Shown here piece by piece: positions 23,089 through 44,556 of a stretch of DNA of 64,000 bases. Below the pieces are notes generated by a model. It did not search any database, was not told where the DNA came from, and was given only the letters and a program-made list of their open reading frames with translations. The DNA comes from Prevotella sp. UBA1104 (lineage in GTDB: Bacteria > Bacteroidota > Bacteroidia > Bacteroidales > Bacteroidaceae): positions 19,511-83,510 of the forward strand of contig DCBP01000096.1 of the NCBI GenBank assembly GCA_002314055.1, written 5' to 3'. How positions within the stretch are numbered: the first letter of the stretch is position 1; each line of letters starts with the position of its first letter. The translations under genes and the position numbers were made by a program.

Positions 23089-23162
23089 GGCTCCGTAGCT
23101 CAACTGAATAGAGCATCTGACTACGGATCAGAAGGTTCCGGGTTTGAATCCCAGCGGAGTCA
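23089..23162 (+). tRNA. tRNA-Arg (ACG)
   Basis: Acceptor GGCTCCG/CGGAGTC, anticodon arm TCTGA-CTACGGA-TCAGA, T-arm GGGTTTGAATCCC. Confidence 0.96.
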
Positions 23163-23433: not shown

Positions 23434-23540
23434 TTTTGAAGTTTTAGCGAATTCCAGGGCAATAATACATTTTGCAACAGTTAAAAAACATTACAACGAT
23501 TGTCTGTGCTCCGATGATGTCACGCAAAACTTTTATTGAA

Positions 23541-24704
23541 ATGAAAAAGAATTTAGTGGATGTCGTTTATGACAGAAGGAATCTTGTTGCAAAGAAAGGT
23601 TATGGATTTCTAGAAGTGAGGGTTTATCTTGACCACACAGGCAGAAGGAAGTACTTGAAAATTGATAAGTGTACTCCAAGTGAGGCAAAGAAACTTGAAA
23701 AGTCCCATGAGACAAAGGAACTGATCGAGAAATGTGAGCAGATTCTGTCCGTGATGAAATTTCTTGGTGAAGACATGACACCGGAAAATTTTGATTTTCA
23801 TCTAACTGGAGAATCAAAGAAAACTGAAAAGTTAGAGGAGCCGGAACCCAAGGAAGAAGCTCCCAAGGACAACTCCAACAAGAGTTTCATCCGCTACATG
23901 GAATTTGCCCTCGCCGATGAGGAGCTTCGCCCTGGCACCCATAAGAATAAGGTGGTGGTGATAGATGCCGTAAAGCGTTTCGGCGGTCTGAACACCTACG
24001 GCGACTTGACTCCGGCAAAGATCCGTCAGTTTGACGACTGGCTTCATGACGGCACAAGGTCTGATGTAACTATTTCCGGCTACCACAAGAAGGTACACAA
24101 ATGGGTGCGGCAGTTGGTAGAGACGGACGAGATAGCCCATGACCCGTATTCACGTGTAACGATAAAGCGCGGCAAGAGCAAGGAGCGCCGTCCTTTGACG
24201 GAATCCGACTTGAAACGTATGCGCGAGTACCGTTTTACAGGCAAGCTTGAACGTGTGCGCGACCTGTTCATCTTCTCGGCATATACAGGTTTGTCTTATG
24301 CCGATACCCAAATCTTTGACTTCGAGAGCATGACGTTAAGCAACGGCGGTATGTACTATGTTGACGGCAGCCGAGTGAAGACCGGCACACGCTTCTTCAC
24401 TCCGATACTGTCCCCTGCAATGGAAGTGCTTAAGAAATACAACTTCAATTTGCCGAAGATAAGCAACCAGAAGGCAAACGACTACCTCCATCTGATAGAG
24501 GCACAACTCGGTTTCCGCAACAGCCTGACTTTCCACGTTGCACGGCACACCTTCGCTACTCTCGCCCTGTCTCATGACGTGCCAATCGAGAACGTGGCGA
24601 GAATGTTGGGACATGAGGACATCAAGACCACACAGATTTATGCCAAGGTGCTGCGCTCCACGATCGAGCGCCATGCCGAAGCACTGCAAGGCGCACTACT
24701 CTAA
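23541..24704 (+). CDS. Tyrosine recombinase/integrase (IntDOT-like)
   Basis: YTGLSYAD, RVKTG, FHVARHTFAT, MLGHEDIKTTQIY. Confidence 0.95.
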   Translation: MKKNLVDVVYDRRNLVAKKGYGFLEVRVYLDHTGRRKYLKIDKCTPSEAKKLEKSHETKELIEKCEQILSVMKFLGEDMTPENFDFHLTGESKKTEKLEEPEPKEEAPKDNSNKSFIRYMEFALADEELRPGTHKNKVVVIDAVKRFGGLNTYGDLTPAKIRQFDDWLHDGTRSDVTISGYHKKVHKWVRQLVETDEIAHDPYSRVTIKRGKSKERRPLTESDLKRMREYRFTGKLERVRDLFIFSAYTGLSYADTQIFDFESMTLSNGGMYYVDGSRVKTGTRFFTPILSPAMEVLKKYNFNLPKISNQKANDYLHLIEAQLGFRNSLTFHVARHTFATLALSHDVPIENVARMLGHEDIKTTQIYAKVLRSTIERHAEALQGALL

Positions 24705-29500: not shown

Positions 29501-30692
29501 CCATATCCTTGAATACAGGCGCCAACACGTCAATGTTGCCCAGTTCATGGAGCCTGTCGAGCAACATAAGAAGACCCTCGTTAGTACTTTTCTTTAGAGT
29601 CTCGTTAAACTCCTTCGCATTAAGTCCTGTAGCCTTGATAATTTTGTCATTCTCCTTGAACATGTCCATAATGACCTTTGAAACGGCAGTCGCCGACATC
29701 TCCACCGCCTGACCCTGGCTATCCAACACGGCTGCAAAACCCATGATTTCGGGAATCGTCATTTTCGCCTGTGCCCCCACGCCAGCCATACGCTGCGCAA
29801 AGTTTGCAAGATACGGAGCCGATGCCGTGCAGTTCTGCGACAACTCATTAATTACCGAACCCACGGCAAGAAGAGCCTTTTCCGTTCCCATGCGCTCCTC
29901 GTCACCGAAGATGCTTGTCAGTTTGGAAAGAGTAAGCGTCGCCCCTTCACCCAAATCGTCGAGAGCAACATTGATTTGGTCAGCAGCACGTACAAAACCG
30001 AGCACATCCTCCTGTGAAGTTTTGCCGAGTCTTCCGGCTTCCTGTGCAAGTTTGTTCAAATCCTCCCGAGCCGTTCGTGTATCAATCTTCTTGAACTCCT
30101 CGTTCAGTTCCGCAACCCCCGAAGCCGAAAGTCCCGTAAACTTGCGTACATTCGCCATCTCCTGGTCCATATCCGCAAAAGCGTTCACCGCCGAGCGCCC
30201 CGCCATGACAAGACCTGTAACGGCAGCCGCCATTCCGGCGATAGCCGTCTGCCAATCGTTCAGCTTGCGGTTCATGCGTTCCCACAGACTTTCATTCTCC
30301 CGAAGTTCCGAGTTAACTTTTGCTATCTCCGCCTTTACACGCTTGATAGCCTCACATTGGCGGTTCCACTCCTCGCTACCACGCTCCAATCCGTTAAGAC
30401 TGCGCTTTAACTGGGATAGAGTGCGGTTTAACTCCTTGGGAGAAGCTTGGTCCAACCTCGCCAAAACATTTTCCACTCCTTTACTTGCACTCTCAATTTG
30501 AGAAATCTGCCTGTTCGTTTCCTTCAACTCCTTCTTCAAGCGAGTCAGTTGCGACTTGTTTCCTGCCGCAGCCGCCTTCTCGATAGCCTTTTCAAGATTG
30601 GAAGCTTGCGATTTGAGCTTGGCAAGCATATCCTCCGCCTGTTTACCGTTTACAGTAAGGGTAACCGTTGCGTTAGCATTAATAGATGACAT
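26598..30692 (-). CDS. Phage tail tape measure protein
   Basis: About 1360 aa, Ala-rich helical, TP901-like core (FADMDQEMANVRKFTG), C-terminal GGFT...GIVHAGEWV motif. Confidence 0.92.
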   Translation of the reverse strand: MSSINANATVTLTVNGKQAEDMLAKLKSQASNLEKAIEKAAAAGNKSQLTRLKKELKETNRQISQIESASKGVENVLARLDQASPKELNRTLSQLKRSLNGLERGSEEWNRQCEAIKRVKAEIAKVNSELRENESLWERMNRKLNDWQTAIAGMAAAVTGLVMAGRSAVNAFADMDQEMANVRKFTGLSASGVAELNEEFKKIDTRTAREDLNKLAQEAGRLGKTSQEDVLGFVRAADQINVALDDLGEGATLTLSKLTSIFGDEERMGTEKALLAVGSVINELSQNCTASAPYLANFAQRMAGVGAQAKMTIPEIMGFAAVLDSQGQAVEMSATAVSKVIMDMFKENDKIIKATGLNAKEFNETLKKSTNEGLLMLLDRLHELGNIDVLAPVFKDMGENGARAAQVISALAGNLDMVRWEQEEANKAFAEGTSVTNEFNVQNTTVQAGLDKARKGVTEMAVALGQQLQPVMAHVISSTTLLLKFMSTSITFIKENAFTLASLTAAFVAYKIAVNASNIAFKAHYAWLVICKTATMAYKTVVGTLHAAHLLLQMGLAKLQGNWVRQSWLMSDLKKQGAQLASGYGAILAAVILLGTGLYKLYKRMTEVSQSEKDLQKIRKRGQEGIVEEKNKINALLAVARDETQSLKDRHTAIDALNRIIPNYNAQLDDTTGKYKENKKALDDYLKSLTRKYEIEGAKDKLKEIGKQRADLVIEKQERKNKLEYEDKHRVVTGDRLGGMAASAQNTALNTRIRNGTKDIDKKIEELDKREAVITGIYGKDIAKDAAEETKKTSEEEEKPTQPTTPTSPTKTDKGNNDALKSEKDWRTREQALNRIAYAKGEKDYEEYTNRMTEIDIEYNEKVMANGKATTEQKMEAEAAFYEAKKKLVDDKNTQSAKEENDYYNELVATEKQRFIDGKVDQKTYDDALELMELEHLRRLTKVYTKGSKEQLAADKTYQDKLVENQKKRIKETEENEKKHQKELAKIKEDFFGDNKGEKKEKYTKESNALDEVYRNEIKAAGDDAEEKLRIEKAYQKAKVALAKKYGQEYKDENRNVLQGMAEDVTEWLKSDWGQAVTGSFDTLTSGMSSIFSGMTSLIQAELEIQTAAIEKRYDKEISQAEGNNYKVKKLEEQKQKELAKKKNEANKKMFTMQVLQAVAQTAQNALSAYGSAAAIPMVGYILAPIAAAMAIAAGAIQIAAIKKQQQASESQGYMRGGFTPSGRVDEEVGIVHAGEWVASQEMLASPVARPIINALDYAQRTNTIGSLRADDVSRSIAPNVYNQNKAQSQPVIVQQQSDGLATAAIVQSTKIMSEYTETMSALKDRLNEPFVTVNTVTGDTGIKQAQDEYNTLIRNKTPKSRRK

Positions 30693-30723
30693 AGTCCTTT
30701 CGAATTTGAATGTTATACGACAG

Positions 30724-30758
30724 CAAAAATAGCGACACGGGAACATTCATAAAAAGAC
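30724..30758 (-). promoter_or_regulatory. Element-specific promoter GTCTTTT-N20-TAnnTTTG (tape measure)
   Basis: One of seven copies with an exact 20-nt spacer. Confidence 0.7.
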
Positions 30759-31381
30759 GCAAAATCAAGACGTTAAGCTCCAAAAAGGGCACGAGGATTT
30801 AAGAAAATCCGCCATTTTTTAAGACATAAAAAATATAACGTCTTGATTACCAACGAGAAAAGGGATTGTTAAGGGAATTTCCCTTAACCCGTCTTGATAA
30901 AGACCCCCCGACCGCCCTGTACTGCCGAACCGCTCCGAGGCTTTCAAGGAAGCGGAATATGTGAACAAGTGTTAATTTTAAGTTTCTCAATTACGACAAA
31001 ATGCCGAAGTTGCGCTAAAAGGCGAAAATTCCGAATAAGGCGAAAAGGAAGAAAAGGCGGATTAGGTTGCGAGGGATGCGAGAGCGACCGCAAAGTTTCG
31101 CAAAGGCATAAGGATGCTCCGAGTTTCGGAATGATGAAAGGGACACTCCGAGTTTCGGGAAGATATATGTTTTCGGATTGGGAGAAATGGGAGGACTAAG
31201 AGAAATGGGCAAAGGTTTCGGAAAAGTAGGGAGTTTTCGGGATGACAAAGGGTATCGGAATGACATATAGGACTGATATGACCAATAGGACGAATACGAG
31301 AGGGGAAAAGTGAGGGTTTCGTGATGATGCCAAGGACAACAAAGCGACCCACGAGCCGACGGAGGCATCGGGCGGTAATGC

Positions 31382-32353
31382 GGCAGTGGTGAGAGATGAA
31401 AAGGTGATGCGCCTGTCGGTATTCAGCCGACATGGGGGCGCATCGGCTTTTCATCGGCTTTACTTCACTCTCAATAAAACTTGTTTTACTGAGGGGGAAG
31501 TAATGCTCACCTCTGCCATACCTATTGAATAAGCGAGAGTGCTGGCTGACTTTTAGCAATCTCCGATTGCCATAAGTCAGACGGCTTTCTCGCATTGACA
31601 GACAATAGAAAGCGCAGCTTTACCAGACAAAGGGCGAAGCCTGTGAGGAAATGAAGGCATTGCCTTATTGCAGAGAGTGTGAAGGCGCAGCCTTGCAAAA
31701 AGCGAATGGATGTGGAGAGAAATGCAATGAAGTGGGAATGTAGGGTTTCGGCTTGGCGCGAAGAGCCAAGGCGGAACCCGTAATGGGAACGTAATGGAAT
31801 GTAGCGCAACGTCCTTTCGCAACTCTGAAAGGTGAAGGGTGTGCAACACTGTTCACCTTTTAATAAAGACAGACATCGAAGATGTAGGAAATGAAATTGA
31901 CGCTTGCGTGTTGATGATTGACGTGTAGGTCAGACAAGCACGCTGAAAGCGTTGCTTGGCTGGGCGGAGCGTCAATCATCAGCGGAGGTGGTGCATTGTT
32001 CGGTGGCGAGGACCGGCGCAGCCGTGAAAGCGTGGGGCGTGGAATGAAGTGGAGGTGCTTCGGGCTGACGTGAAGGAAAGTGTGTGTTGCTTACCCCGTG
32101 CCGTAACTCGTGTGCCTGCACTTTCTCTGAAAGACGCAGCGGACTTGTCGACGCTCGCGGCGATGTGTCCGCTGCCCTTCCAGAGAAAAGAGTTGCGGCA
32201 CGGATTAAGGGAAGTGGCATACTCTTTCCGCAACAGAAGAACGAAGAGCCGGAACGCAATGGAACGCCCCACGGTTTTCTTAGCCACAGCGTGGCTTGTA
32301 CTCGCTATGAACAATGCACCGCCGGAGCCGTTGGCTGAAGGCTTTAGCCTTTT
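31382..32353 (+). ncRNA. Putative large structured non-coding RNA (5' end undefined)
   Basis: Nested long helices with + strand G-U pairs, no credible ORF, terminator at 32333-32353. Confidence 0.6.
32333..32353 (+). terminator. Intrinsic terminator closing the structured region
   Basis: GGCTGAA-ggc-TTTAGCC followed by TTTT. Confidence 0.55.
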
Positions 32354-32972
32354 ATTCTCTTCGGGCGTGGGAGCGCCGAAGTACAATAAGAATAATACCT
32401 ATTATAAATAGGATGATGAAAGTGAGCTTTGTGGATGACGAAAGGAAAGGCTTGCTTTCCTTTTGTGTATTTTGCGCCTTTGCGTATGAGGACTGCATCG
32501 CCTTGGCGAGGCTGTCCGCTTCCTGCTGGTACATGGAGGACTTTTCCTCGACCTTCCGGGAGAGGTGAAGTCCGTAGACGGTTACTTTGGACGGCTGCGC
32601 CGTGGAAAATGAAGAAGACTTTGTCTTGGTGTTCTTATGGGGCTTGCCCGTAGAGGGAGAAACGTCAGGGAGTGGCGCAGAGGTATCGGAGTGCTCACTG
32701 GTGTTTCGGGTGGGTGGGAAGTATAGAGCGCAGCTGTCGAAGGAAAGGGCGGTGAGGCGCCTTAAAGAGCTGGATGAAAGATTCTCGGCGGATTGCCATT
32801 GGGCTTGCACAACGGCGTTCCGACCGCTTTCATCATTCTGTGTTTTCCGCACTGTCTTGCATCCTGCAAGGCAAATTACGGAAAAAATAAAGCCCCACCC
32901 CCAGACCCCTCCCCAAAGGGAGGGGAGTGATATGCTTGAGAACTTGTGTTTTAGAAATGGGATGATATTCAT
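32352..32972 (-). CDS. Lipoprotein with C-terminal TM helix (u-spanin-like)
   Basis: Lipobox LAGC, C-terminal LTFIILFIIGIILIVL-RR, directly after the endolysin. Confidence 0.6.
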   Translation of the reverse strand: MNIIPFLKHKFSSISLPSLWGGVWGWGFIFSVICLAGCKTVRKTQNDESGRNAVVQAQWQSAENLSSSSLRRLTALSFDSCALYFPPTRNTSEHSDTSAPLPDVSPSTGKPHKNTKTKSSSFSTAQPSKVTVYGLHLSRKVEEKSSMYQQEADSLAKAMQSSYAKAQNTQKESKPFLSSSTKLTFIILFIIGIILIVLRRSHARRE

Positions 32973-33005
32973 ATTCAGGGATGATTTAGTTGTGAGAGTA
33001 TTCTT

Positions 33006-33416
33006 TCAGATGTTTGCATATTCTTTTGTGGCATCGAAGGATGGGCAGGCTTTCGGGGCGAAGTCGCGATGACTGCGGATGCTTGCATGTGGAAACTGCT
33101 CTTTTAGCTCTTTGAGAAGAGATAAAAGTGCAGCCTTCTGTGCTGACGTGCGAGTGTCCTTCGGACTCTTGCCGTCAGTTGCGAGACCACCTATGTAGCA
33201 TACTCCGATGCTATTGGTGTTGTGCCCCTGGCAGTGCGCTCCAACCGCTCCGATTGGGCGCCCAGTGTGTATGCTGCCGTCAAGGTAGACAACGTAATGG
33301 TAGCCGATGGAGGCGAATCCGCGTTGTCGGTGCCAACGGTCGATGTCGGCGACAGTGAAAGACTTGCCTTCGGGAGTTGCGGAGCAATGGACGATGATTG
33401 TGGTGATCTTTCTCAT
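33006..33416 (-). CDS. N-acetylmuramoyl-L-alanine amidase (T7-lysozyme-like endolysin)
   Basis: IIVHCSAT, IGYHY, GAHC, SIGVCYIGG, HRDF..KACPSFD motifs. Confidence 0.93.
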   Translation of the reverse strand: MRKITTIIVHCSATPEGKSFTVADIDRWHRQRGFASIGYHYVVYLDGSIHTGRPIGAVGAHCQGHNTNSIGVCYIGGLATDGKSPKDTRTSAQKAALLSLLKELKEQFPHASIRSHRDFAPKACPSFDATKEYANI

Positions 33417-33664
33417 TTCTTCTCCTCCTCTTTCAGTTTGTTGTCGAGATAGGATCTGAGTTCGGAGTACTTGCTTTGTATGTAGATGGTAACCCCGAAG
33501 ATGGATCCGGCATAGATAAGGCACTCGGCGAAAATGCCGAGGACCGACTCGTGGATTTGACCGGTGGGCGGTACTACGAACCCTGCGACGGCAAGGAGAA
33601 ATCCGCCAATCAGCATAGCGATTGCAGAAGTAATCTGGATGTTTTCTTTAGTTTCTTTAGTCAT
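33413..33664 (-). CDS. Putative holin
   Basis: 83 aa, two TM helices, charged C-terminus, overlaps the endolysin start. Confidence 0.7.
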   Translation of the reverse strand: MTKETKENIQITSAIAMLIGGFLLAVAGFVVPPTGQIHESVLGIFAECLIYAGSIFGVTIYIQSKYSELRSYLDNKLKEEEKK

Positions 33665-33708
33665 GATGATAAGAATTAGTTGATTGAATAAACAGAAGAA
33701 AGTTGCTT

Positions 33709-33743
33709 GTCTTTTGCCATTCAGAGAATAAGAGTTACTTTTG
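33709..33743 (+). promoter_or_regulatory. Element-specific promoter GTCTTTT-N20-TACTTTTG, antisense orientation
   Basis: Same motif and spacing as the six minus-strand copies. Confidence 0.65.
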
Positions 33744-33752
33744 TGTCATGTT

Positions 33753-33827
33753 TGTGGTATGAGACCATTAACATTTGGTATGTGGTATGAGACCATTTAT
33801 ACTTTGGCGTTGTGGTATGAGACCATT
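33753..33827 (+). repeat. Three TGTGGTATGAGACCATT direct repeats
   Basis: Exact 17-bp copies at 33753, 33781 and 33811 with 11- and 13-nt spacers. Confidence 0.9.
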
Positions 33828-33844
33828 TCGCCATTTTTCGTATC

Positions 33845-35002
33845 TTAGAACTTGGAAAAGTTATAGGAAACTTCATAGTTTTGTTCATCAGTCCCTCTTG
33901 CACAAGCAATAACCTTAAACACGGCGAGGTTTGTGCGAAGGTCCGAAAAGCGGAACGCCCAGGAAAAGTCCGTTTCCTTGTAGAAACCGACAGCAAACTT
34001 GAACGAATGATACTTGTAAAGGATATCAAAGAGTTTTTGTCCGTAAGGAATACGGATCTTGTTAATCTTTCCGTCCGGGAGTTCAACGACCTTCACCTTA
34101 GAGAACAGGGCTTCCGGCGTTTGCATATATTGGTGTTTCGTTTCATTAGGTTGCAGTTTCTCCATGCGGAACGAAACCGTGTCGTCGCTGTTGATGATTA
34201 TTTTCTTAGAGTCAAAAAACCTGTTCCATCCGCGACGTTTAGGGAGATATTCCCTTGGCAATTCCGGGTTTTCCTTGTCAGTCCACCGTCTTGAAGTACG
34301 TGTCGTGTAACGGAAGATTACCGGAATGAGCCCCGACTTGACCAACTGATAAGCCCCCTGAATATAAATCTTGTTGTCCTTGATAATCGCCTCGATATGC
34401 ACGGAGGTGGTTTGACGCATGGAAGCAAACGTATTGATGTTGTTCTGGAGCGTTCGGATGGCAGACTTCAGAGAAGAGATGTCCGTTTGGAGCTGCTTAA
34501 TGTCGATATCCATGAGGTTGGCACCGCGGCGCAGGGAAGTGATGGAGAGTTGGATATTGCTGATGCTCTTTTCAAGGTCGGAGAGAGATATTTGGAGGGA
34601 CGTGATGTCCTTGGAAACTGCGGAAATATCCGTTTTGCACTTGTTGAGATCCGTTACCTGCTGAGCACGCATAACCCCGGCACGTTCGGTGGTGGCTTGG
34701 CGGATGGAAATGGAATTTTGCAAGACCTGCGACCTGTTCGTTTTCAGATCAGACTTGGTGAGGGAGAGGAAGACACTGTTGCGGTCGTCCGAGCCAATGG
34801 AAATGCCGTTGAGCATTGATCCGAGATTTTGCAGCGCCGTGCGCCATGCAGCAAGGCTCGCCACGTCCGACTGTTGGGCGGTGTTGGCGATGACGTCGGC
34901 AATGCGCTGGAGAAGCGCGCCGAGGACTTCGGGAGAAATACTTTCCTCTTGAGTTTCGTTGCGGAAAGAGGAGATTAGATTAGTGAGAGAAGAGATGTCC
35001 AT
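33845..35002 (-). CDS. Phage protein with coiled coil (possible tail fibre or accessory)
   Basis: 385 aa, heptad-rich middle, ATTERAGVM motif, own element-specific promoter. Confidence 0.6.
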   Translation of the reverse strand: MDISSLTNLISSFRNETQEESISPEVLGALLQRIADVIANTAQQSDVASLAAWRTALQNLGSMLNGISIGSDDRNSVFLSLTKSDLKTNRSQVLQNSISIRQATTERAGVMRAQQVTDLNKCKTDISAVSKDITSLQISLSDLEKSISNIQLSITSLRRGANLMDIDIKQLQTDISSLKSAIRTLQNNINTFASMRQTTSVHIEAIIKDNKIYIQGAYQLVKSGLIPVIFRYTTRTSRRWTDKENPELPREYLPKRRGWNRFFDSKKIIINSDDTVSFRMEKLQPNETKHQYMQTPEALFSKVKVVELPDGKINKIRIPYGQKLFDILYKYHSFKFAVGFYKETDFSWAFRFSDLRTNLAVFKVIACARGTDEQNYEVSYNFSKF

Positions 35003-35014
35003 GATTTTTTATTG

Positions 35015-35049
35015 CAAATATAATTTGGTGGAATTGATGAAGAAAAGAC
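35015..35049 (-). promoter_or_regulatory. Element-specific promoter GTCTTTT-N20-TATATTTG
   Basis: Exact motif upstream of the 35002 start. Confidence 0.7.
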
Positions 35050-35183
35050 GAAATTGAATTTAGAATTTAGAGTGTAGAATGTAGAATTGTGGCTTCGCCA
35101 TTGAGAATTGGAGAATTATTGAATCTTTGTGTAACTGAAAAATTGAAAAATGATAGAACTGCGAGAACTGGAATTTCCTACAA

Positions 35184-35615
35184 TCAGTGATTGTAGCGGA
35201 GGTGCTTGTCGTCCAGGGCTTGGGCGACGATACCGACAAACTCGTTGGCGATGTTTTCGGAGAGGAAATCACGGAGGTTCATTACAGAGGCGTAGTATTT
35301 GCGAGAGAACCATGGTTTCTTTTTGCGCTTGCGGTCGCGGCCGATGTCGCCATTATTACCTCTTGGAACCTCTTTTCCGGTGCCATAGTTCTGCCAAAGG
35401 CCGTATTCAAGAAATGTTTGACTAAGTCCAATTTCGATGAATCTGCCATCGGCTCTTACGGGGAGGGACTTGGGACTGTTGAGCAACCTCCCGGTGTCGA
35501 TGACACCGAGGAGAGTGATTTGCTCCTTCCATATCTTCAGCATCGTGTCGTTGAAGGCAAGAACGAATTTCTCGCGCTCCTGCTGGGTTTGGTCATTGCC
35601 ATTCTGTGGGGTCAT
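35184..35615 (-). CDS. Phage hypothetical protein (possible neck/tail completion)
   Basis: IDTGRLLNS motif; position in the morphogenesis operon. Confidence 0.6.
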   Translation of the reverse strand: MTPQNGNDQTQQEREKFVLAFNDTMLKIWKEQITLLGVIDTGRLLNSPKSLPVRADGRFIEIGLSQTFLEYGLWQNYGTGKEVPRGNNGDIGRDRKRKKKPWFSRKYYASVMNLRDFLSENIANEFVGIVAQALDDKHLRYNH

Positions 35616-36126
35616 AACGAAGGTCGGTAAAGGTGTCTACTGCAATTTGAAAGAAAGCGCATGCGCAGCCGGAGAAGAAATACTGGTCTATTTCTTGGAA
35701 ACTGATACGTGGATCGAGGTAGATGCTGTTTTGTTCTAACCTTGTTTTCTCCAAAATCAACTTGCTCATGAACTGACGGAACAACTCGCGCATGGAGTCC
35801 ATACACGCTTGTCGGGCGGTCATGTCGCCGAGAGCGTGACGCATGGCGAGGAAGACAGTCTTCACTCGCCTTGTGTGGGGACTGTTGTTCACTTCGATGT
35901 AGCCTTGACTGATGTCCGACACGGCGACGATGGCGGTGGCGGATTGGAGCTGGTTGAGAGCTTCCTCGAAGCCGTCAAGACCGCTGACCTTGGCGAAGAC
36001 AAATTCTTTGGTTTGGGCGAATTTGTTGGTGGATGTGAGGGTTTGGAAGAAGACGGCGGCATTCCAGGCCCCACCCCCGAACCCCTCCCCGTGGGAGAGG
36101 GGAGTAATATGCTTTTGTTGCGTCAT
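35593..36126 (-). CDS. Phage hypothetical protein (possible tail terminator)
   Basis: 177 aa, overlaps the next gene; position. Confidence 0.6.
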   Translation of the reverse strand: MTQQKHITPLSHGEGFGGGAWNAAVFFQTLTSTNKFAQTKEFVFAKVSGLDGFEEALNQLQSATAIVAVSDISQGYIEVNNSPHTRRVKTVFLAMRHALGDMTARQACMDSMRELFRQFMSKLILEKTRLEQNSIYLDPRISFQEIDQYFFSGCACAFFQIAVDTFTDLRYDPTEWQ

Positions 36127-36281
36127 AGTGGAAAGATTGAAAAATTGAAAAAATGAAAGATTGAAAAATTGAGAGATTGAAAGATTGAAAAAAGATGAGA
36201 GAACTGGGAGTAATGGGAGAACTGATGTTCTGCTTAGGACAGATGGGACTAATAGGACAAATACACTTTTGAAGTATTATG

Positions 36282-37025
36282 CTATTTGGTGCTACGCTTG
36301 AAGTCCTCGACCTCCTTGGCTTTTGCATCTAACTCCGTCAGGGCTCGCCACGTGTCCATGGCGAGGACTGCGCTCTCTTTGGTGATGTCGCCACCAGTGA
36401 GGGCGCGAATCTGGGCGTTCATGGCGTTCTTGACTTCCTCGGCGGTGTTGGGGAAATTGCCGAGGAGGTTTGAAGGCACGATTGGGGATGCTGTAAAGAA
36501 GTGGTGGAACTGACGGGCGAAGTACTGCTTCAGCGCGGCAATCCAGTAGAATATGCCGAAGAGATGGGCGGTGGTGAGTTTACGCTGCTTGATTTTTGGG
36601 TAGAGCAAAGGGGCGGCATCTTTTAGGATGTTGATGTTTTTGGTGTGGAGAAAGCCTTGGTAATAATTATCCACTGCGATGAAAGTGGAGAACGGGATTT
36701 GCTGAAAATCGGCAGCGATGCCTTGCGCCTTGCCGATTTTCGTGATGCGTGTGGGGAATGGAGGAAATGACCTTAGAAAATCCAGAGTTGCGGTGGCGGA
36801 CTGGATTTGACGTGTTGAGAGCCATGCTTCATTTTTGCCGTGCTTGATGAGGGTGTTTCCCTTGAAACGGCAACACACAGAGAGGTTTGCCCATTTGAGA
36901 AGGCAAATAGTTTGGATTTCTTCCATTGGGTAGTCCTTGGAAAGGAGGTGGAAGAAATATTGGAGTTGGCGGTCAGAGAGGGACTGCCAATCAGTGGGGA
37001 GAGATATATTGAAAAATGCTTCCAT
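36282..37025 (-). CDS. Phage hypothetical protein
   Basis: LPTDWQSLS N-terminus, QIRALTGGDITKE C-terminus; element-specific promoter upstream. Confidence 0.65.
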   Translation of the reverse strand: MEAFFNISLPTDWQSLSDRQLQYFFHLLSKDYPMEEIQTICLLKWANLSVCCRFKGNTLIKHGKNEAWLSTRQIQSATATLDFLRSFPPFPTRITKIGKAQGIAADFQQIPFSTFIAVDNYYQGFLHTKNINILKDAAPLLYPKIKQRKLTTAHLFGIFYWIAALKQYFARQFHHFFTASPIVPSNLLGNFPNTAEEVKNAMNAQIRALTGGDITKESAVLAMDTWRALTELDAKAKEVEDFKRSTK

Positions 37026-37029
37026 ACGG

Positions 37030-37064
37030 CAAAGGTATGGAAGCATTGGTATGGAGGAAAAGAC
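37030..37064 (-). promoter_or_regulatory. Element-specific promoter GTCTTTT-N20-TACCTTTG
   Basis: Exact motif. Confidence 0.7.
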
Positions 37065-37069
37065 AAAAG

Positions 37070-37483
37070 TTATTTTAAAGTGTATTCTGTTGAAAGTCCG
37101 TTATTATTATCTGCTGTCTTCTCACTTTTTATACCGAATGGTGAATTGTTACAGCTAACATATATTCTAACGAAGTTTGTACTTTCTTTGCTTGATTGAG
37201 CAGTTGGAGTTGCGGATAATCTTACTGTTTGACCTTTTTTGAAAGGTCCATATGTACCTTCCCATGTTGATGATGTTGTAGATGTGCTTTCTTGTCCCTT
37301 TTCTGTTGTGTATGAAATAACTTGTTTAAAACGGCTTGGTACAAACATTTTTACTTCATACTTTACATAGTAAACATCATTTGCTTGTGTTGTATCATCA
37401 GGAATAACAGGATCATTAGACCCGTCTTTTGAACAAGAAACAATCAAAAGAAGTAAAGTGAAAAATATAAATATTTTTTTCAT
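37070..37483 (-). CDS. Low-GC lipoprotein (moron/cargo)
   Basis: Lipobox IVSC; AT-rich; own TAATTTTG element upstream. Confidence 0.75.
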   Translation of the reverse strand: MKKIFIFFTLLLLIVSCSKDGSNDPVIPDDTTQANDVYYVKYEVKMFVPSRFKQVISYTTEKGQESTSTTSSTWEGTYGPFKKGQTVRLSATPTAQSSKESTNFVRIYVSCNNSPFGIKSEKTADNNNGLSTEYTLK

Positions 37484-37527
37484 ATCTTGATTATTAATTT
37501 ATTTATGCTGCAAAATTATAAAATATT

Positions 37528-38382
37528 TTAGAAGAAATATCCACTAGACTCTTTTTTATTTTTATATCCGTAGTCTTTAAAGAGATTGAAGGTGTCAGAG
37601 TTCTTCCATTCTAGGAAGACGTAGCTCTTGGAAGTACGTATGAAATTGACGGCATCGATGATGGACGGTGTTGGGAATTCGCCCGTTCTCAGGATTGAGA
37701 ACTCAATCGAACGAATCCGGTTGCTTAATTTCAGATAGGCATTTGAATCAGGAGATTTAGAAAAGTCGTTCCTTATGATACATTTCCGAAGGGTTTCCAT
37801 TAAACTTTCAGAAAAATAATCACGTGCGAGTTTATCCTCGATGATGATAAGCTGGTTTCGGATATCGGTGTATTTCAGCCAAATATGGTCGTTAAAACCG
37901 AGGTTCTGAACGATGTCGAGAGTCGGGAACATCGTCTTGGCGAAGAAGTTGTAAGGTTTCGAGTTGAGCCAGTGGTGAGCTTCGAGAAGCATCGGTTGGA
38001 TAGTTTGCAGGGCGTCATCACGGGTTTTCTCCAAGGATGATAAAAGTCGTTCGATGCGCTCCTTGGAAGCCGGGGCGATGTTTTGGTTGCTGACGATGCC
38101 GAAGCCGTTGGGGGTGAGGATGAGATCCAACTGGGGGATGGCATGGAGCATGGCTTCTGATGCTACGATGATGCGGCAGAAGTGGAGAAGCGGTGTGATG
38201 TCGGAGTAAGTTTTGATTCGCGACATAGTGTCGGTGGAGACAAACGTGTCAGTAAGCCACGTTTCCGCATGGAGAAGGTGGTACTGGATTTTGTCGTAAA
38301 GGGACGTTTCCCCGGCAACCGCTTTGAGGGTGTTGGGGATGTACTTTAATAAGGTGGTGTTGTCGGGGATTAAAGCTGACAT
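37528..38382 (-). CDS. Phage protein, DUF6712-like (possible head-tail adaptor)
   Basis: AIPQLDLILTPNGFGIVSNQNIAPASKER motif; follows portal. Confidence 0.65.
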   Translation of the reverse strand: MSALIPDNTTLLKYIPNTLKAVAGETSLYDKIQYHLLHAETWLTDTFVSTDTMSRIKTYSDITPLLHFCRIIVASEAMLHAIPQLDLILTPNGFGIVSNQNIAPASKERIERLLSSLEKTRDDALQTIQPMLLEAHHWLNSKPYNFFAKTMFPTLDIVQNLGFNDHIWLKYTDIRNQLIIIEDKLARDYFSESLMETLRKCIIRNDFSKSPDSNAYLKLSNRIRSIEFSILRTGEFPTPSIIDAVNFIRTSKSYVFLEWKNSDTFNLFKDYGYKNKKESSGYFF

Positions 38383-38424: not shown

Positions 38425-39816
38425 CTAATCATTTTTGTTGTCGGGGGGAGTGTTCTGTTTTTCGGTGCTTACCTGCTTGGCATCCTTGTTCTCGTCAAGA
38501 GTGGTAAGCTGGATGAAAGGGCAGTCGGGCTTGACCGCTGACCAGTTGTTGAAACGGATGATAAGGCGATGGACGTTGAAAAGTAGGTCATGATACGGTT
38601 TTTGCAGAGCCTGTGCGATGGTGTAAAGCTCACGCTTGTCAGAGCCGGAGTTGTTTGTCTGAGTTTTGCCGGGGACAGAGCCGACGAGGTTGGAGTGGAC
38701 ACGCATTGTGAAACACATCATGTTCACCGCCTCGATGATGTCCGTCGCCCAGTCGCCGCCCTCCTTGTCAGTCTCGATTTTGTTGATGACGACATCGTGC
38801 TGCTCCTCACCGTTCGGTGATACGTAGAACGTGGAGAAGAGGACCTTTCCACTGTTCTCCATACCCGTGAGAAAGTTGATGATGTTATCCTTCTCCTTGT
38901 TTACGCGTTCCTGCTGCTTCACTTTATCCGTGATACCCTCGACTTTGAAGATGTTGTTCCAGAAGCTGTTGGCAATCTCGATGTGGTATTTTATTGGGGC
39001 GGAGTTCTTGAGTTTCGCTTCCTTGGCGATGCCGATGAGCTGCTTGATGTTGTACCACTTGCCCTTGAAAAGAGCGGCATAGTAAGGGATTGGGTAATAG
39101 GTGTTGTCGGGCGTGGGAACACGACTCAAAACCGCAAACTTGCGGTTTGAGAATGAAGAATTAAGAGTGAAGAATGAAGAATTCTGATTAGCGTTGTTCT
39201 TTGTTTTTCCTTTGTTTAACCGCTGCTGCAAATCCGAGAGAGGGGATTGAGGATTCAATAACTCGATGCGCTCGATGTCTTCTGGGGAAGGAGTATTGCG
39301 CCAGTTGGCATAGAGGATGTAAGGGATTATGCCGTTCTTGTCAGCCGGGGCGAAGCGGACGTAACAGGCTTGCTTGCGTGCGATGCGGACGATGCGTGAG
39401 CCGTCCTCGTTGAGGATGATGACGCTTACGGCGAAACCGAAGTGTTTGAAGTCTTGGCAGACGCCGAGGAAATAACTCGCGATGTCATTATCAGCGGTGA
39501 AGTCCTCAACTTCCTTCTGTACTTGTGCGGTGGCGGAGCTTGTGTCGTAGACTAAGCCGCTGCCGTAGCAGACTTCGGCATTGAACATCTGGCATGTGGC
39601 GAGAGTTTCATCGGACTCGATAAGGTCGATGATGTTATACGGCATCTGGTTGTCGGCGCCCCATGGGATGTATTGCATCTTTTCAGTGATGAACACTGGG
39701 GCGATGTTGTGCTCCTCCTTGAAGACTTCACTTGTCTTGGGGGTGAAGGCGGCTGCCTTGTTGGTGCCGGGAATCTGGGCAACGGATGTTGGGGGGATGA
39801 AAGAAAAATCGCTCAT
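38425..39816 (-). CDS. Phage portal protein (putative)
   Basis: YIPWGADNQMP, YYPIPYY, FLTGMENSGK, SGSDKRE motifs of Bacteroidales phage portals. Confidence 0.78.
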   Translation of the reverse strand: MSDFSFIPPTSVAQIPGTNKAAAFTPKTSEVFKEEHNIAPVFITEKMQYIPWGADNQMPYNIIDLIESDETLATCQMFNAEVCYGSGLVYDTSSATAQVQKEVEDFTADNDIASYFLGVCQDFKHFGFAVSVIILNEDGSRIVRIARKQACYVRFAPADKNGIIPYILYANWRNTPSPEDIERIELLNPQSPLSDLQQRLNKGKTKNNANQNSSFFTLNSSFSNRKFAVLSRVPTPDNTYYPIPYYAALFKGKWYNIKQLIGIAKEAKLKNSAPIKYHIEIANSFWNNIFKVEGITDKVKQQERVNKEKDNIINFLTGMENSGKVLFSTFYVSPNGEEQHDVVINKIETDKEGGDWATDIIEAVNMMCFTMRVHSNLVGSVPGKTQTNNSGSDKRELYTIAQALQKPYHDLLFNVHRLIIRFNNWSAVKPDCPFIQLTTLDENKDAKQVSTEKQNTPPDNKND

Positions 39817-39834
39817 ATCTTGCTTTTTTGAGGG

Positions 39835-39869
39835 CAAAGATATGGGCGAAGAGATGTGGGGGAAAAGAC
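39835..39869 (-). promoter_or_regulatory. Element-specific promoter GTCTTTT-N20-TATCTTTG (portal)
   Basis: Exact motif. Confidence 0.7.
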
Positions 39870-42052: not shown

Positions 42053-43405
42053 ATGATCACGACTATCAAGAAAAATTTTTCATTATTTGACTTTTGTAAG
42101 AAGAAAGCCGACAAGGTTCAGATATACGGTGAAGAAACATTGGATGATGAAGGAAATGTAATACCCTTTGTAGACCAAGCCGCCCTCATTACCCATTATT
42201 TGCAGCTAAGAAATAAAAATGTAGATATGCCTTATGCACAACAAGCCGAAGGCATATTAAATTTGTGGTATGAGTTTGTTAAAGGTGAGAAACAGCACAA
42301 ACCAGTTGATTTTGAAGGTGTGTCAGATTCGCCTGTTGGATATCAATCATATTTGTTTCCAGATTTATTTGAAGCTCCGTTTCAAGCTCCCAAGCATCCA
42401 AAATTCACATTTATAGATTTATTTGCTGGTATTGGAGGTTTTAGAATGGCATTCCAGAATCTTGGAGGTGAATGCGTATTTTCTTCCGAATGGGATGAAC
42501 AGGCAAAGAAAACCTATTATGCAAATTATGGTGATGTGCCTTTTGGAGATATAACAAAGGAAAGTACAAAGAACAAAATACCTAATGGGTTTGATATTCT
42601 TTGTGCAGGATTCCCGTGTCAGGCTTTCTCTCTTGCCGGAAAGCGACTCGGCTTTGAGGAAACTCGCGGTACATTGTTTTTTGATGTTGCGGAGATATTA
42701 CGCCGTTATCAGCCGAAGGCATTCTTCCTTGAAAATGTGAAAGGTCTTGTAATACATGACAAAGGAAGGACATTCAAGACTATTCTTAATACATTGGATG
42801 AAGTCGGATATGTTGTTCCAGATCCACAGATAGTAAATGCAATGTTCTTTGGTGTTCCACAGCATCGTGAGAGAATTTACATTGTTGGTTTCAGAAAGGA
42901 TTTGGGAATAAAGAAAGAGGATTTTTCTTATCCAGAGCAGAAAAAAGTAACAAAAAAGTGGATTGATGTTCGTGAAGAGAATCCTGTGCCAGCAAAGTAT
43001 TATCTTTCTACCACTTATATCGAAACGCTAAAACGGCACAAGGCTCGTCATGAGGCGAAAGGTCATGGCTTCGGATATGACATAATACCCGATGATGGTA
43101 TTGCACATGCTATTGTCGTAGGTGGTATGGGAAGAGAGAGTAACCTTGTTATAGATTTTCGTCAAACGGATCTTACGCCGACAACGAGGATTAAAGGTGA
43201 AGTAAATCGCCAAGGTTGGCGCAAGATGACTCCTCGTGAGTGGGCGCGTTTGCAGGGCTATCCGGACAATTTCAAAATTGTTGTAGCTGATGCCTCGGCA
43301 TACAAACAGTTTGGGAATAGTGTGGCTGTACCGGCAATACAGGCAACAGCAAAGCAGTTGCTTAAAACTTTGAATGATAAAAATATTCTCAAAATATGGG
43401 ACTAA
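42053..43405 (+). CDS. DNA (cytosine-5) methyltransferase, M.HpaII-like
   Basis: FIDLFAGIGG, AGFPCQAFS, LENVKGL, PQHRER, YKQFGNSV motifs. Confidence 0.96.
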   Translation: MITTIKKNFSLFDFCKKKADKVQIYGEETLDDEGNVIPFVDQAALITHYLQLRNKNVDMPYAQQAEGILNLWYEFVKGEKQHKPVDFEGVSDSPVGYQSYLFPDLFEAPFQAPKHPKFTFIDLFAGIGGFRMAFQNLGGECVFSSEWDEQAKKTYYANYGDVPFGDITKESTKNKIPNGFDILCAGFPCQAFSLAGKRLGFEETRGTLFFDVAEILRRYQPKAFFLENVKGLVIHDKGRTFKTILNTLDEVGYVVPDPQIVNAMFFGVPQHRERIYIVGFRKDLGIKKEDFSYPEQKKVTKKWIDVREENPVPAKYYLSTTYIETLKRHKARHEAKGHGFGYDIIPDDGIAHAIVVGGMGRESNLVIDFRQTDLTPTTRIKGEVNRQGWRKMTPREWARLQGYPDNFKIVVADASAYKQFGNSVAVPAIQATAKQLLKTLNDKNILKIWD

Positions 43406-43426
43406 AATAACTGAAAATATAATATT

Positions 43427-44506
43427 ATGGCATTAACAGGAAATAAAGGAGAATGGAGTGAGATATACACTCTTTTTAAATTGTTAGGTGATGGTAAAGT
43501 TCATGCTGGCGATGCCGATATGAACAAGTTGGAATTGTATTATCCAATTCTAAATATCATTCGCGAAGAAAGCAAGCGATACGAGTATAAGCCAAATACA
43601 GAGCAGAACATTGTTATCATAGATGAAGATGGTAATGAGTATGCTCGAATTTCCATGGACAGGTTTGTTGAAGAATCGTCAAAATTGTTGTCTGAAATTA
43701 AGGCGGCAAAGAAGAGTGCTTTTGAAATTCCAGAAGCTGAACGTTTCATGGGCGAGATTGGCTGTTCTAAATTGAAGGCACCTTCAACAGACAAGGCCGA
43801 CATTCATATTGTAATACATGATCTTCGAACGAATATGACTCCACTGTTGGGTTTCAGTATTAAATCGCAGTTAGGCAGTGCTTCAACTTTGCTTAATGCA
43901 GGAGCTACCACCAATATTACTTATAAGGTAGATGGAACAAAGTTGAGTGATGAAGATATTAATGCAATTAATGGGGTCAATAGTCATTTGGACCGTTTGT
44001 CAGCTTTATATGAAAAGGGATGCTCATTGGAATATAGTGATATAGACAATTCCGTTTTCAGAAATAATCTTCAGTTTCTGGATAATTGTATGCCACAATT
44101 TATTGGAGACTGCCTGTTGGTTGATAGTAAAGGGGCAAATTCCTCAATAGACCATTGTGTGAAAGAAGTTGCAAAGAATAATCCTTTTGACTACAAAGGC
44201 AAGAATGTAGAAGATTTCTATGCCCACAAGATGAAAGTTTTGCTTCTAAGTGCAGCCCTCGGTATGGTGCCAGGCAAGGAATGGACTGGACGGTATGATG
44301 CCAATGGTGGCTATCTCGTAGTCCGCAAGGATGGAGAAATTGTCTGCTATCATTTCTACAATCAGAATGATGTTGAAGACTATTTGTATAAGAATACTCG
44401 GTTTGAAAGAGCCAGTCGAAGCCGTTTTGGGTTTGGTAAACTGTATCGTGGGGAAGATGGTAGTGTTTACATGAAGCTGAACTTACAGATAAGATTTAAG
44501 AAATAA
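43427..44506 (+). CDS. Type II restriction endonuclease, HpaII family
   Basis: MALTGNKGEWSEIY, KADI, GFSIKSQLG, LNLQIRF; adjacent to the C5-MTase. Confidence 0.85.
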   Translation: MALTGNKGEWSEIYTLFKLLGDGKVHAGDADMNKLELYYPILNIIREESKRYEYKPNTEQNIVIIDEDGNEYARISMDRFVEESSKLLSEIKAAKKSAFEIPEAERFMGEIGCSKLKAPSTDKADIHIVIHDLRTNMTPLLGFSIKSQLGSASTLLNAGATTNITYKVDGTKLSDEDINAINGVNSHLDRLSALYEKGCSLEYSDIDNSVFRNNLQFLDNCMPQFIGDCLLVDSKGANSSIDHCVKEVAKNNPFDYKGKNVEDFYAHKMKVLLLSAALGMVPGKEWTGRYDANGGYLVVRKDGEIVCYHFYNQNDVEDYLYKNTRFERASRSRFGFGKLYRGEDGSVYMKLNLQIRFKK

Positions 44507-44556
44507 ATAGACCTGTTCCTTTTTAGTGGTTTGGCAGAAAATAAAAGATTATTGGC

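Follow-up and report, generated by a model that had tools for sequence, protein, structure and literature searches.

The gene-free gap beside the tape-measure gene

We examined a structured, gene-free element in a prophage of Prevotella sp. UBA1104 that an earlier note had singled out as a candidate large noncoding RNA (ncRNA) at 31382-32353. Coordinates are those of the window, the whole stretch of 64,000 nt that was analysed (contig DCBP01000096.1, positions 19,511 to 83,510). The prophage is integrated beside a tRNA gene (23089-23162), with its integrase at 23472-24704 (+); this tRNA, about 8 kb from the element, is the only match to Rfam 15 in the whole window at the gathering threshold. 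All late genes lie on the - strand, among them those for the terminase large subunit (51788-53518) and the portal protein (38425-39837). The setting described in the note, between lysis cassette and tape measure, is borne out: an amidase and a spanin-like lipoprotein gene flank the element on one side and the gene for the tail tape-measure protein (TMP) on the other, and the element reads on the strand opposite to the late genes (Table 1). The gene-free gap between the TMP and spanin-like genes (30747-32351) is larger than the structured part. Pfam gave no family above cut-off for the 206-aa spanin-like protein, whose sequence features and position after the amidase suggest a unimolecular spanin. 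The best TMP match among deposited phages has only 34.5% identity, and no characterised phage could be used as a stand-in.

Table 1. Coordinates of the element, its parts and its neighbours in the window
Feature	Position	Strand	Description
Tail tape-measure protein (TMP), 1,382 aa	26598-30746	-	PF10145, E 1.7e-19; phrog_25337, E 7.6e-43
Control-like block	30865-30985		Palindromic hairpin 30868-30888; C-rich AAGACCCCCCGACCGCCCTG at about 30903-30922; GCGGAATATGT...GTTAA block
Purine-rich leader	31000-31340	+	Largely unstructured; degenerate GTTTCGG-type direct repeats
5' domain	31374-31522	+	Closing helices GGTA/TACC and GGCAG-GGTGAG/CTCACC-CTGCC round a long hairpin (31395-31457)
23-pair hairpin	31533-31593	+	GCGAGAG...CTCTCGC; three pairs changed on both sides, 98.9% paired
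First purine-zipper helix	31702-31820	+	2-bp rungs alternating with GNA/GNA loops; capped by hairpin 31743-31779; in minimum free energy and alifold structures
Hairpin	31828-31860	+	AAAGGTGAA/TTCACCTTT; kept in the L011 clade with GTCAAAG/CTTTGAC-type stem changes
Hairpin	31912-31981	+	12-bp base TGATGATTGACG/CGTCAATCATCA and GUA/GGA loop; in the minimum free energy structure
Rod, 337 nt	31987-32323	+	Most conserved domain; basal helix GGTGGTGCATTGTTC/GAACAATGCACCGCC; distal branched hairpin 32082-32222
Intrinsic-terminator-like hairpin and T run	32333-32349/32353	+	Abuts the stop codon (32352) of the convergent spanin-like gene
Spanin-like gene, 206 aa	32352-32972	-	Lipoprotein-like N-terminal signal features; C-terminal transmembrane helix
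N-acetylmuramoyl-L-alanine amidase	33006-33524	-	PF01510; phrog_822, E 2.6e-61

The note had seen no credible open reading frame (ORF) in 31382-32353, and we found none either. ORFs of 117-177 aa occur on the - strand of the interval, but they are low-complexity strings of Ser, Leu, Pro and Arg, and the two that were searched (31062-31595 and 31979-32386) had no Pfam or PHROG match. Protein-coding DNA could nevertheless have escaped notice through an atypical genetic code, frameshifting or genes of very small size, such as those for tail-assembly chaperones: the position upstream of a siphovirus tape-measure gene is their usual place, open stretches on the - strand reach 185 codons, and relatives show ORFs of 90-200 aa in the interval. 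These stretches, however, overlap one another in different frames, as predicted for a strand whose long open stretches result from its being C/T-rich. Each of the six frames has 13-31 stops of two or three kinds; therefore no single stop reassignment opens any frame, which rules out an alternative genetic code. Indels between relatives (1, 2-3 and 65 nt, inside the longest + strand ORF) do not come as multiples of three, and substitutions track the pairing partners in helices instead of codon positions. Within what sequence analysis can show, a coding explanation is already refuted, and we give it next to no weight.

That 31382-32353 is structured is certain. Folded as RNA, the + strand reaches a minimum free energy (MFE) of -461.1 kcal/mol against -334.3 +/- 8.4 for 20 dinucleotide shuffles, none of which folds as well (z -15.05); the folding-energy comparison suggested in the note thus comes out strongly for structure. 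This fold contains 348 pairs, 31 of them G-U, with 71.6% of bases paired. The - strand gives -368.8 against -272.7 +/- 8.9 (z -10.8), and DNA parameters give -252.4 against -149.9 +/- 6.4 on the + strand (z -16.1) and -210.5 against -126.4 +/- 5.8 on the - strand (z -14.5). Because both strands fold far above chance with either set of parameters, energy alone names neither the strand nor the molecule. Loop type cannot settle RNA against DNA either, since the hairpin loops are not mostly GNRA or UNCG. The 5' 630 nt of the gap (30760-31385) show no significant fold (z -1.3 on the + strand, -2.2 on the - strand), which marks the start coordinate given earlier, 31382, as a real boundary.

The element is predicted to fold into at least eight hairpins and rods, which shows structure far beyond chance, and the MFE fold includes each component that the note had drawn: a three-way junction, hairpins at 31743-31779, 31828-31860 and 31912-31981, and the long rod. 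In the junction, GGCAG (31382-31386) and GGTGAG pair with CTCACC (31506-31511) and CTGCC (31513-31517) around two arms, one formed by GATGAAAAG (31395-31403) with CTTTTCATC and the other by TACTTC (31461-31466) with GAAGTA (31497-31502). The second arm (31461-31502), and hence the three-way junction, occurs only in the window and in two related loci, L007 and L072 (L numbers label the loci compared), and not in the main or L011 clades of relatives. Symmetric 3x3 loops interrupt the first purine-zipper helix at 31714/31806, 31724/31796, 31729/31791 and 31740/31780, and the rod contains three consecutive invariant loops of the UGNAA/UGNAA type (32041-32053 opposite 32251-32263). The one description that had to be corrected concerns AATG(G/A)A motifs, said to recur in the linkers; they pair with one another, as U-A-closed GNA/GNA 3x3 loops inside two long helices. 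Their density by itself is only modestly raised, with five in the 500 nt of 31501-32000 and 75 over the whole 64 kb.

Covariation and the folding strand

The rod provides the clearest record of selection on pairing. Its 16 sequences share 113 consensus pairs, with 98.7% of cells paired. Both sides have changed at 21 of these pairs, against 15.8 +/- 1.7 in shuffled alignments (none of 500 as high), and in 86 cells against 26.8 +/- 3.8. The covariation score is 0.190 against 0.110 (0/500), and slid controls yield 1-4 pairs with 34-47% paired. Results for the 5' domain together with the next hairpin (12 distinct sequences, 60 consensus pairs, 98.6% paired) point the same way: six pairs changed on both sides against 3.1 +/- 1.1 (9/500), 15 such cells against 3.6 +/- 1.5, a score of 0.111 against 0.067 (0/500), and slid controls of 0-1 pairs. 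The compensatory change for which the note had wanted homologues checked is thus present in both regions. Alignments of two middle modules are gappy; alifold counts there give compensatory change in 24 of 52 and 10 of 29 pairs, the latter in the module 31826-31990, which includes the 31912-31981 hairpin. These comparisons show covariation above controls, within four clades only, and indicate a fold kept across them by compensatory and wobble substitutions.

The kind of substitution that is tolerated distinguishes the two strands. At consensus pairs, G-U outnumbers A-C by 209 cells to 11 in the rod and by 44 to 1, 30 to 1, 121 to 9 and 106 to 5 in the other modules (the last being 31826-31990), which sums to 510 against 27 over the five; with three conserved A-C mismatch columns counted in, the figures are 510 and 75. 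The bias towards G-T wobbles on the + strand that the note had remarked on is therefore pronounced. Three adjacent wobbles in the rod are nearly universal (U-G in 16/16, U-G in 13/16 and G-U in 14/16, the others being Watson-Crick), and on the - strand these same positions become three adjacent A-C mismatches. The alifold energy of the rod is -167 kcal/mol on the + strand and -127 on the - strand, 40 kcal/mol worse.

Internal loops show the same asymmetry. The + strand fold has 11 symmetric 3x3 internal loops, nine of which are GNA/GNA closed by U-A (the UGNAA/UGNAA type), whose geometry, judging by purine-loop structures in general, may be that of sheared G-A pairs. Forty dinucleotide shuffles of the + strand average 1.1 3x3 loops and none of the GNA/GNA kind; the - strand fold also has none, and there the purine loops read as pyrimidine UNC/UNC loops. 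Purine-purine zippers are a normal building block of RNA, and their pyrimidine complements are not. Representatives of the other clades carry four (L008), eight (L011) and seven (L044) GNA/GNA loops on the + strand and none on the opposite strand. The loops of the rod (GUGGAAUGAAGUGGAGG opposite CGGAACGCAAUGGAAC) are near-invariant in sequence and the helices on both sides covary; in the first zipper, rungs of 2 bp that are A-U elsewhere are G-C in the rows shown for the L011 clade, with the G-N-A loops unchanged. The excess of G-U over A-C, and GNA/GNA loops on one strand only, show that the + strand, opposite the late genes, is the one under selection for folding, and they make RNA a more natural molecule than DNA.

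Wobbles and purine loops are thus on the wrong strand for a cis-acting part of the late (-) transcript, whether as a long structured tail at the 3' end of the lysis mRNA, a 5' leader of the TMP mRNA, or a zone of processing, termination or antitermination. Such a role would agree with the far-above-chance folding of the - strand and with the terminator-like hairpin conserved on the - strand at 30868-30888, which separates the element from the TMP start; a family of more distant phages, the L076 family, also has a - strand terminator after its spanin gene, and late transcription has to cross the gap or restart in it. Set against the complete lack of GNA/GNA loops in the - strand fold, the G-U to A-C ratio on either count and the energy penalty of the rod consensus, we consider a cis-acting role in the late transcript highly improbable.

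Relatives, modules and leader

Homologues were reached only through the TMP and through a 16-mer scan: used as a DNA query, the whole 1.6-kb gap matched none of 60 other genomes and nothing in 50,697 phage records. With the first 500 residues of the TMP we retrieved 37 loci from IMG/VR. A homologous interval lies upstream of the TMP gene, on the opposite strand, in 28 of them; of the nine others, three are truncated, with less than 300 nt of sequence ahead of the gene, and six, which lack the interval, have a TMP at 38-77% identity. With a TMP profile we obtained 66 genome loci, from Prevotella, Leyella stercorea DSM 18206, Prevotella merdae, Xylanibacter ruminicola, Muribaculaceae and Bacteroidaceae assemblies. 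Screening of 74 loci (these 66 plus L036-L043) with an nhmmer profile detects the rod in nine, all with a TMP of at least 90% identity, and the metagenome 16-mer scan places it in 37 of 118 loci, the remainder being chance matches. All carriers are human-gut phages of the Prevotella/Leyella type, and among the loci retrieved two cultured strains have copies, both of the main clade: L. stercorea DSM 18206 (L045) and P. merdae Marseille-P4119 (L050).

The carriers form four clades: the window with L007 and L072 (the latter placed there by 97% TMP identity and its match to L007); a large main clade; L011, L012, L013 and L030; and L044 with L046. In them, 1,459-2,120 nt separate the start of the TMP gene from the 3' limit of homology, and homology between the window and its relatives stops at about 32330, at the base of the rod. 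Members of the main clade have an additional domain, about 200 nt long, after position 31826, and a 65-nt insert sits in the rod of L007 and L072. Such presence and absence of modules, to which the second arm of the window clade and a deletion in L024 may be added, would fit an accretion of palindromic insertions (MITE-like, that is, resembling miniature inverted-repeat transposable elements, or other hairpin-forming selfish DNA) in a hot spot for morons, with no phage function beyond, at most, insulation of two operons. L029 and L083 carry protein-coding morons in this slot, and distant relatives have unrelated, sometimes near-perfect palindromes there, with both strands equal in L054. Yet the modules are single-copy, and dispersal of the MITE or REP (repetitive extragenic palindromic) kind is limited to the leader: 31260-31299 recurs four times, over 33-40 nt at 84-88% identity, on three other contigs of the same genome (C55:3591-3630, C93:9774-9829, C50:38157-38189), and it is the sole part of the gap with copies elsewhere. 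Pairing in 98.6-98.7% of cells and compensatory change above shuffled and slid controls also speak against accretion, as do loops more conserved than the surrounding stems and the strand asymmetry; decaying selfish palindromes would show none of these. We consider accretion very unlikely.

More distant phages have dense structure in the same slot that cannot be aligned with the window family. A calibrated covariance model of 32082-32222 (R1), which scores 139.7 bits on the + strand and 27.9 on the - strand, matched, out of 49 sources, only the window and three closely related copies from metagenomes. In the L076 group, seven sequences in two clades at 81% identity share 190 consensus pairs, ten of them compensatory, with G-U at 226 cells against A-C at 8 and energies (-203 against -150 kcal/mol) that favour the anti-TMP strand. 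Windows of 400 nt in L054, L056, L064, L068, L083 and L098 reach z -7 to -18 on that strand, with L054 folding equally on both (-194 and -201 kcal/mol). GNA/GNA loops number 0-1 in each of the non-alignable families. When eight short conserved motifs were compared, only an 11-mer and a 10-mer were common to the L076 group, whose homology to the window family is conjectural. CAATG stood 2.8-fold over composition in 28 distant upstream regions, but these include coding sequence, and the k-mer enrichment was uninformative. What is conserved seems to be the locus rather than one sequence family, and a structured stretch at the same position in phages this distant suggests a locus-level function that annotation has missed.

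Closer to the TMP gene, the control-like block (30865-30985) is conserved in all three aligned clades. Its C-rich AAGACCCCCCGACCGCCCTG is common even to the non-alignable L076 family (L076:3810-3850, -). The hairpin and AAGACCCCCCGACCGCCCTG (30865-30925), 120-180 nt upstream of the TMP start, are kept where the neighbouring noncoding DNA no longer aligns. Read on the late strand, the block is a G-rich box followed by the terminator-like hairpin, and this pair may be a control site for the late genes; the block as a whole could contain divergent promoters or an operator.

The purine-rich leader that separates this block from the structured body keeps an origin-type reading alive. Its repeats, degenerate in the window, correspond in relatives to clean tandem arrays directly 5' of the structured part (75 nt x 4.1 at L021:5293-5598 and 67 nt x 3.6 at L011:5464-5704, with 87-95% matches) whose copy number varies among near-identical phages, and at 31000-31399 the GC skew is +0.41 and the AT skew +0.30, as in sequences prone to R-loops. 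The element could thus act as DNA, either through its + strand folding as single-stranded DNA (ssDNA) or as a replication origin, in which the repeats at 31000-31340 would be iterons and the structured part either a site of single-strand initiation or the template of a structured RNA primer. ColE1 RNA II and the ori of lactococcal phage c2 are precedents for structured primers and transcribed origins. Folding as ssDNA is as far above chance as folding as RNA, and no promoter was found for a free-standing RNA gene. However, runs of two or three adjacent G-T wobbles are conserved and nine loops are purine 3x3 loops, both of which are ordinary in RNA and costly in DNA hairpins. The repeat units are wholly different between clades (those of L021 and L011 are unrelated), whereas the structured body is shared. 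The element lies in the late region, far from any replication genes, and a + strand terminator follows the rod; the Pfam and PHROG searches of window proteins show no initiator gene adjoining it, and we know of no long-lived + strand ssDNA stage in the late region of a tailed double-stranded DNA phage. The note had itself named a structured ssDNA element as its alternative; wobble pattern and purine loops make this less likely than it appeared, and a DNA-level role, although still an alternative, is in our judgement unlikely.

A candidate large RNA of Prevotella phages

The reading that we favour, with moderate confidence, is that 31374-32353 (+) is an RNA gene, representing a new family of large structured ncRNAs of about 950 nt in a lineage of temperate siphoviruses of human-gut Prevotella and Leyella. 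Its solid part is the existence of a conserved, noncoding element that folds on the + strand, and to this extent the large + strand RNA proposed in the note stands; that it is transcribed, as a single molecule of about 1 kb, would be a further step. A large phage ncRNA family that is both real and new is probably what these loci contain. Transcription would start in or near the conserved block beside the TMP gene, run rightward through the unstructured leader into the structured body, and end convergently with the lysis genes. In L029, the middle of the element is replaced by a gene for a 181-aa predicted membrane protein (L029:4405-4950, -) on the strand of the element; its TATATTTG box and its hairpin with T run indicate that this strand is used for transcription there.

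Several observations count against an RNA gene of this kind. Depth is shallow, with four clades at about 76-98% identity, so that few branches and few independent events stand behind the compensatory counts, and four adjacent changes (UUUCUCUG/CAGAGAAA against UUUUCUCG/CGAGAAAA, in a CU/AG helix) may be one register slip. R1 finds nothing in 45 more distant loci, which makes the sequence family narrow. Structures were predicted on the + strand with G-U permitted, which favours G-U counts; three 1x1 mismatch columns are conserved as A-C (16/16, 14/20 and 18/18), that is, as G-U on the - strand; and DNA parameters give strong folds on both strands. Signals for transcription are sparse. As the note had reported, the + strand of 30747-32353 contains no TAnnTTTG promoter motif. 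The motif occurs on the RNA strand in only eight of 38 family members, at no common place, so that there is no conserved promoter, and a sigma-70 scan gave nothing usable. One look-up of sequencing runs for the 1.6-kb gap listed none of RNA. The + strand terminator that the note had claimed at 32333-32353 is present as a hairpin and T run, but it is clade-specific, being read in the window and L007 only; other clades have a different sequence at its place, and the end of the spanin-like gene extends over the last 45 nt or so of the rod in the main clade. Finally, modules are dispensable among close relatives, which speaks against a single obligatory molecule of 1 kb: the equivalent of 31601-31826 is missing from L024 and the 31533-31593 hairpin from both L044 and L046, and in L029 the replacing gene, with its own terminator, parts the 5' domain from the rod.

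OLE, GOLLD, ROOL, HEARO and raiA make up the usual list of large structured RNAs. The note had been unable to recognise the element as GOLLD or ROOL, and the Rfam search bears this out: no Rfam 15 family, including GOLLD (RF01998), ROOL (RF03087), OLE, HEARO and raiA, matches at curated thresholds. At E <= 10, 30500-32800 returns six chance-level matches, the best at 20.6 bits against a threshold of 58.6, and no large bacterial RNA. Across 13 related loci, the only match at the gathering threshold is a SAM-I/IV riboswitch in L083. Full-text literature searching found no description of the element. Five conserved 14-16-mers are absent from eight of the ten supplementary files of PMC8040213, and a fragment may be among the 3,161 candidates of that study.

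Weinberg et al. reportedly described ROOL in 2017 as a large structured RNA carried by prophages and phages. In the part of PMC12286853 drawn on here, ROOL appears as such an RNA with no known partner protein or function, and GOLLD as an RNA with a conserved 3' region and a variable 5' region. The element resembles GOLLD in being very large, ornate and prophage-borne, GOLLD being likewise of unknown function, and in combining a highly conserved 3' rod, a variable 5' half and an unstructured repeat leader. It differs in that the GOLLD model gives no match even at E <= 10 and the host phylum is Bacteroidota. Its predicted fold consists of rods and hairpins with purine-zipper loops, in contrast to the multi-junction fold of GOLLD. 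With ROOL it shares the character of a large structured RNA-type element of a prophage. Unlike ROOL, it has no Rfam match and no predicted pseudoknot-rich compact fold, and it is confined, within the searches made, to one Prevotella-type phage lineage. For both comparisons, the prophage context agrees, and the position next to tRNA genes or tRNA islands does not.

The zipper loops have a counterpart in another context. The UGGAA/UGGAA motif of r(UGGAA)n, or (TGGAA)n, the repeat of spinocerebellar ataxia type 31 (SCA31), has been studied by nuclear magnetic resonance and crystallography (PMC7801683, PMC12448875). The recurring unit of the element, 5'-U-GNA-A-3' facing 5'-U-GNA-A-3', is this motif, in which two Watson-Crick pairs alternate with three purine-purine oppositions. 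In contrast to the repeat expansion, the units of the element sit in unique, covarying helices of a bacterial virus, and their middle base varies (GGA, GAA, GCA and GUA).

The element tolerates the gain, loss or separation of whole modules while its other parts persist, and it presents one loop motif over and over. From this, we speculate that the RNA might be a multivalent platform rather than a single-site ribozyme or riboswitch: its recurring purine zippers would each hold a copy of the same partner, which may be an RNA-binding protein of phage or host, or a second molecule of this RNA. This mechanism is a guess, and we rate it well below the RNA-gene reading itself.

To our knowledge, conserved structure approaching 1 kb is very rare among the RNAs of bacteria and phages, and the solved structures of OLE, GOLLD and ROOL are RNA-only assemblies. 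A further family would enlarge this small set with a member from a different phylum, Bacteroidota, carried by abundant human-gut Prevotella prophages and built on a repeated purine-zipper motif, and the copies in the two cultured strains would make it a tractable case. More speculatively, this Bacteroidales siphovirus lineage may reserve the slot upstream of the TMP gene, the normal place of the chaperone genes, for large RNAs that run against the late operon and are non-homologous from clade to clade (0.6-1.2 kb), the Prevotella family being an RNA-only or RNA-protein architecture of stacked UGNAA/UGNAA zippers that associates with itself or arrays a partner. We regard this extension as distinctly unlikely; if it were true, the family would add to the GOLLD and ROOL cages a third way of building a giant phage RNA, and it might act in virion or tail assembly or neutralise a host factor.

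The element itself resembles phage morons, self-contained transcription units set between late operons, in its slot between operons, in its orientation opposite to the late genes and in having its own terminator. In some relatives the slot holds protein-coding morons, the 181-aa membrane protein of L029 and a 137-aa ORF in L083, neither of which has a Pfam family. Unlike these, the element has no ORF and no recognisable host-type promoter, and it carries about 1 kb of conserved RNA-type structure. L083 is a prophage of Prevotella sp. P6B1, and its SAM-I/IV riboswitch (2532-2643, +; 59.2 bits against a gathering threshold of 41.1) lies in the equivalent gap between spanin and tape measure, on the late-gene strand, directly before the 137-aa ORF (2639-3052, +). 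Together they would be a phage-borne, riboswitch-controlled moron.

Over 30800-38000 of the window, the + strand GC skew is positive across the lysis and head-side genes despite their - strand coding, and it is negative over the tape-measure gene; the switch of sign falls at the structured element. Elsewhere in the prophage, and also opposite to the late genes, 42053-45906 (+) holds a defence-type island that by Pfam encodes a C-5 cytosine methyltransferase (PF00145), a HpaII restriction endonuclease (PF09561) and an ApeA-like HEPN protein (PF18739/PF18862).

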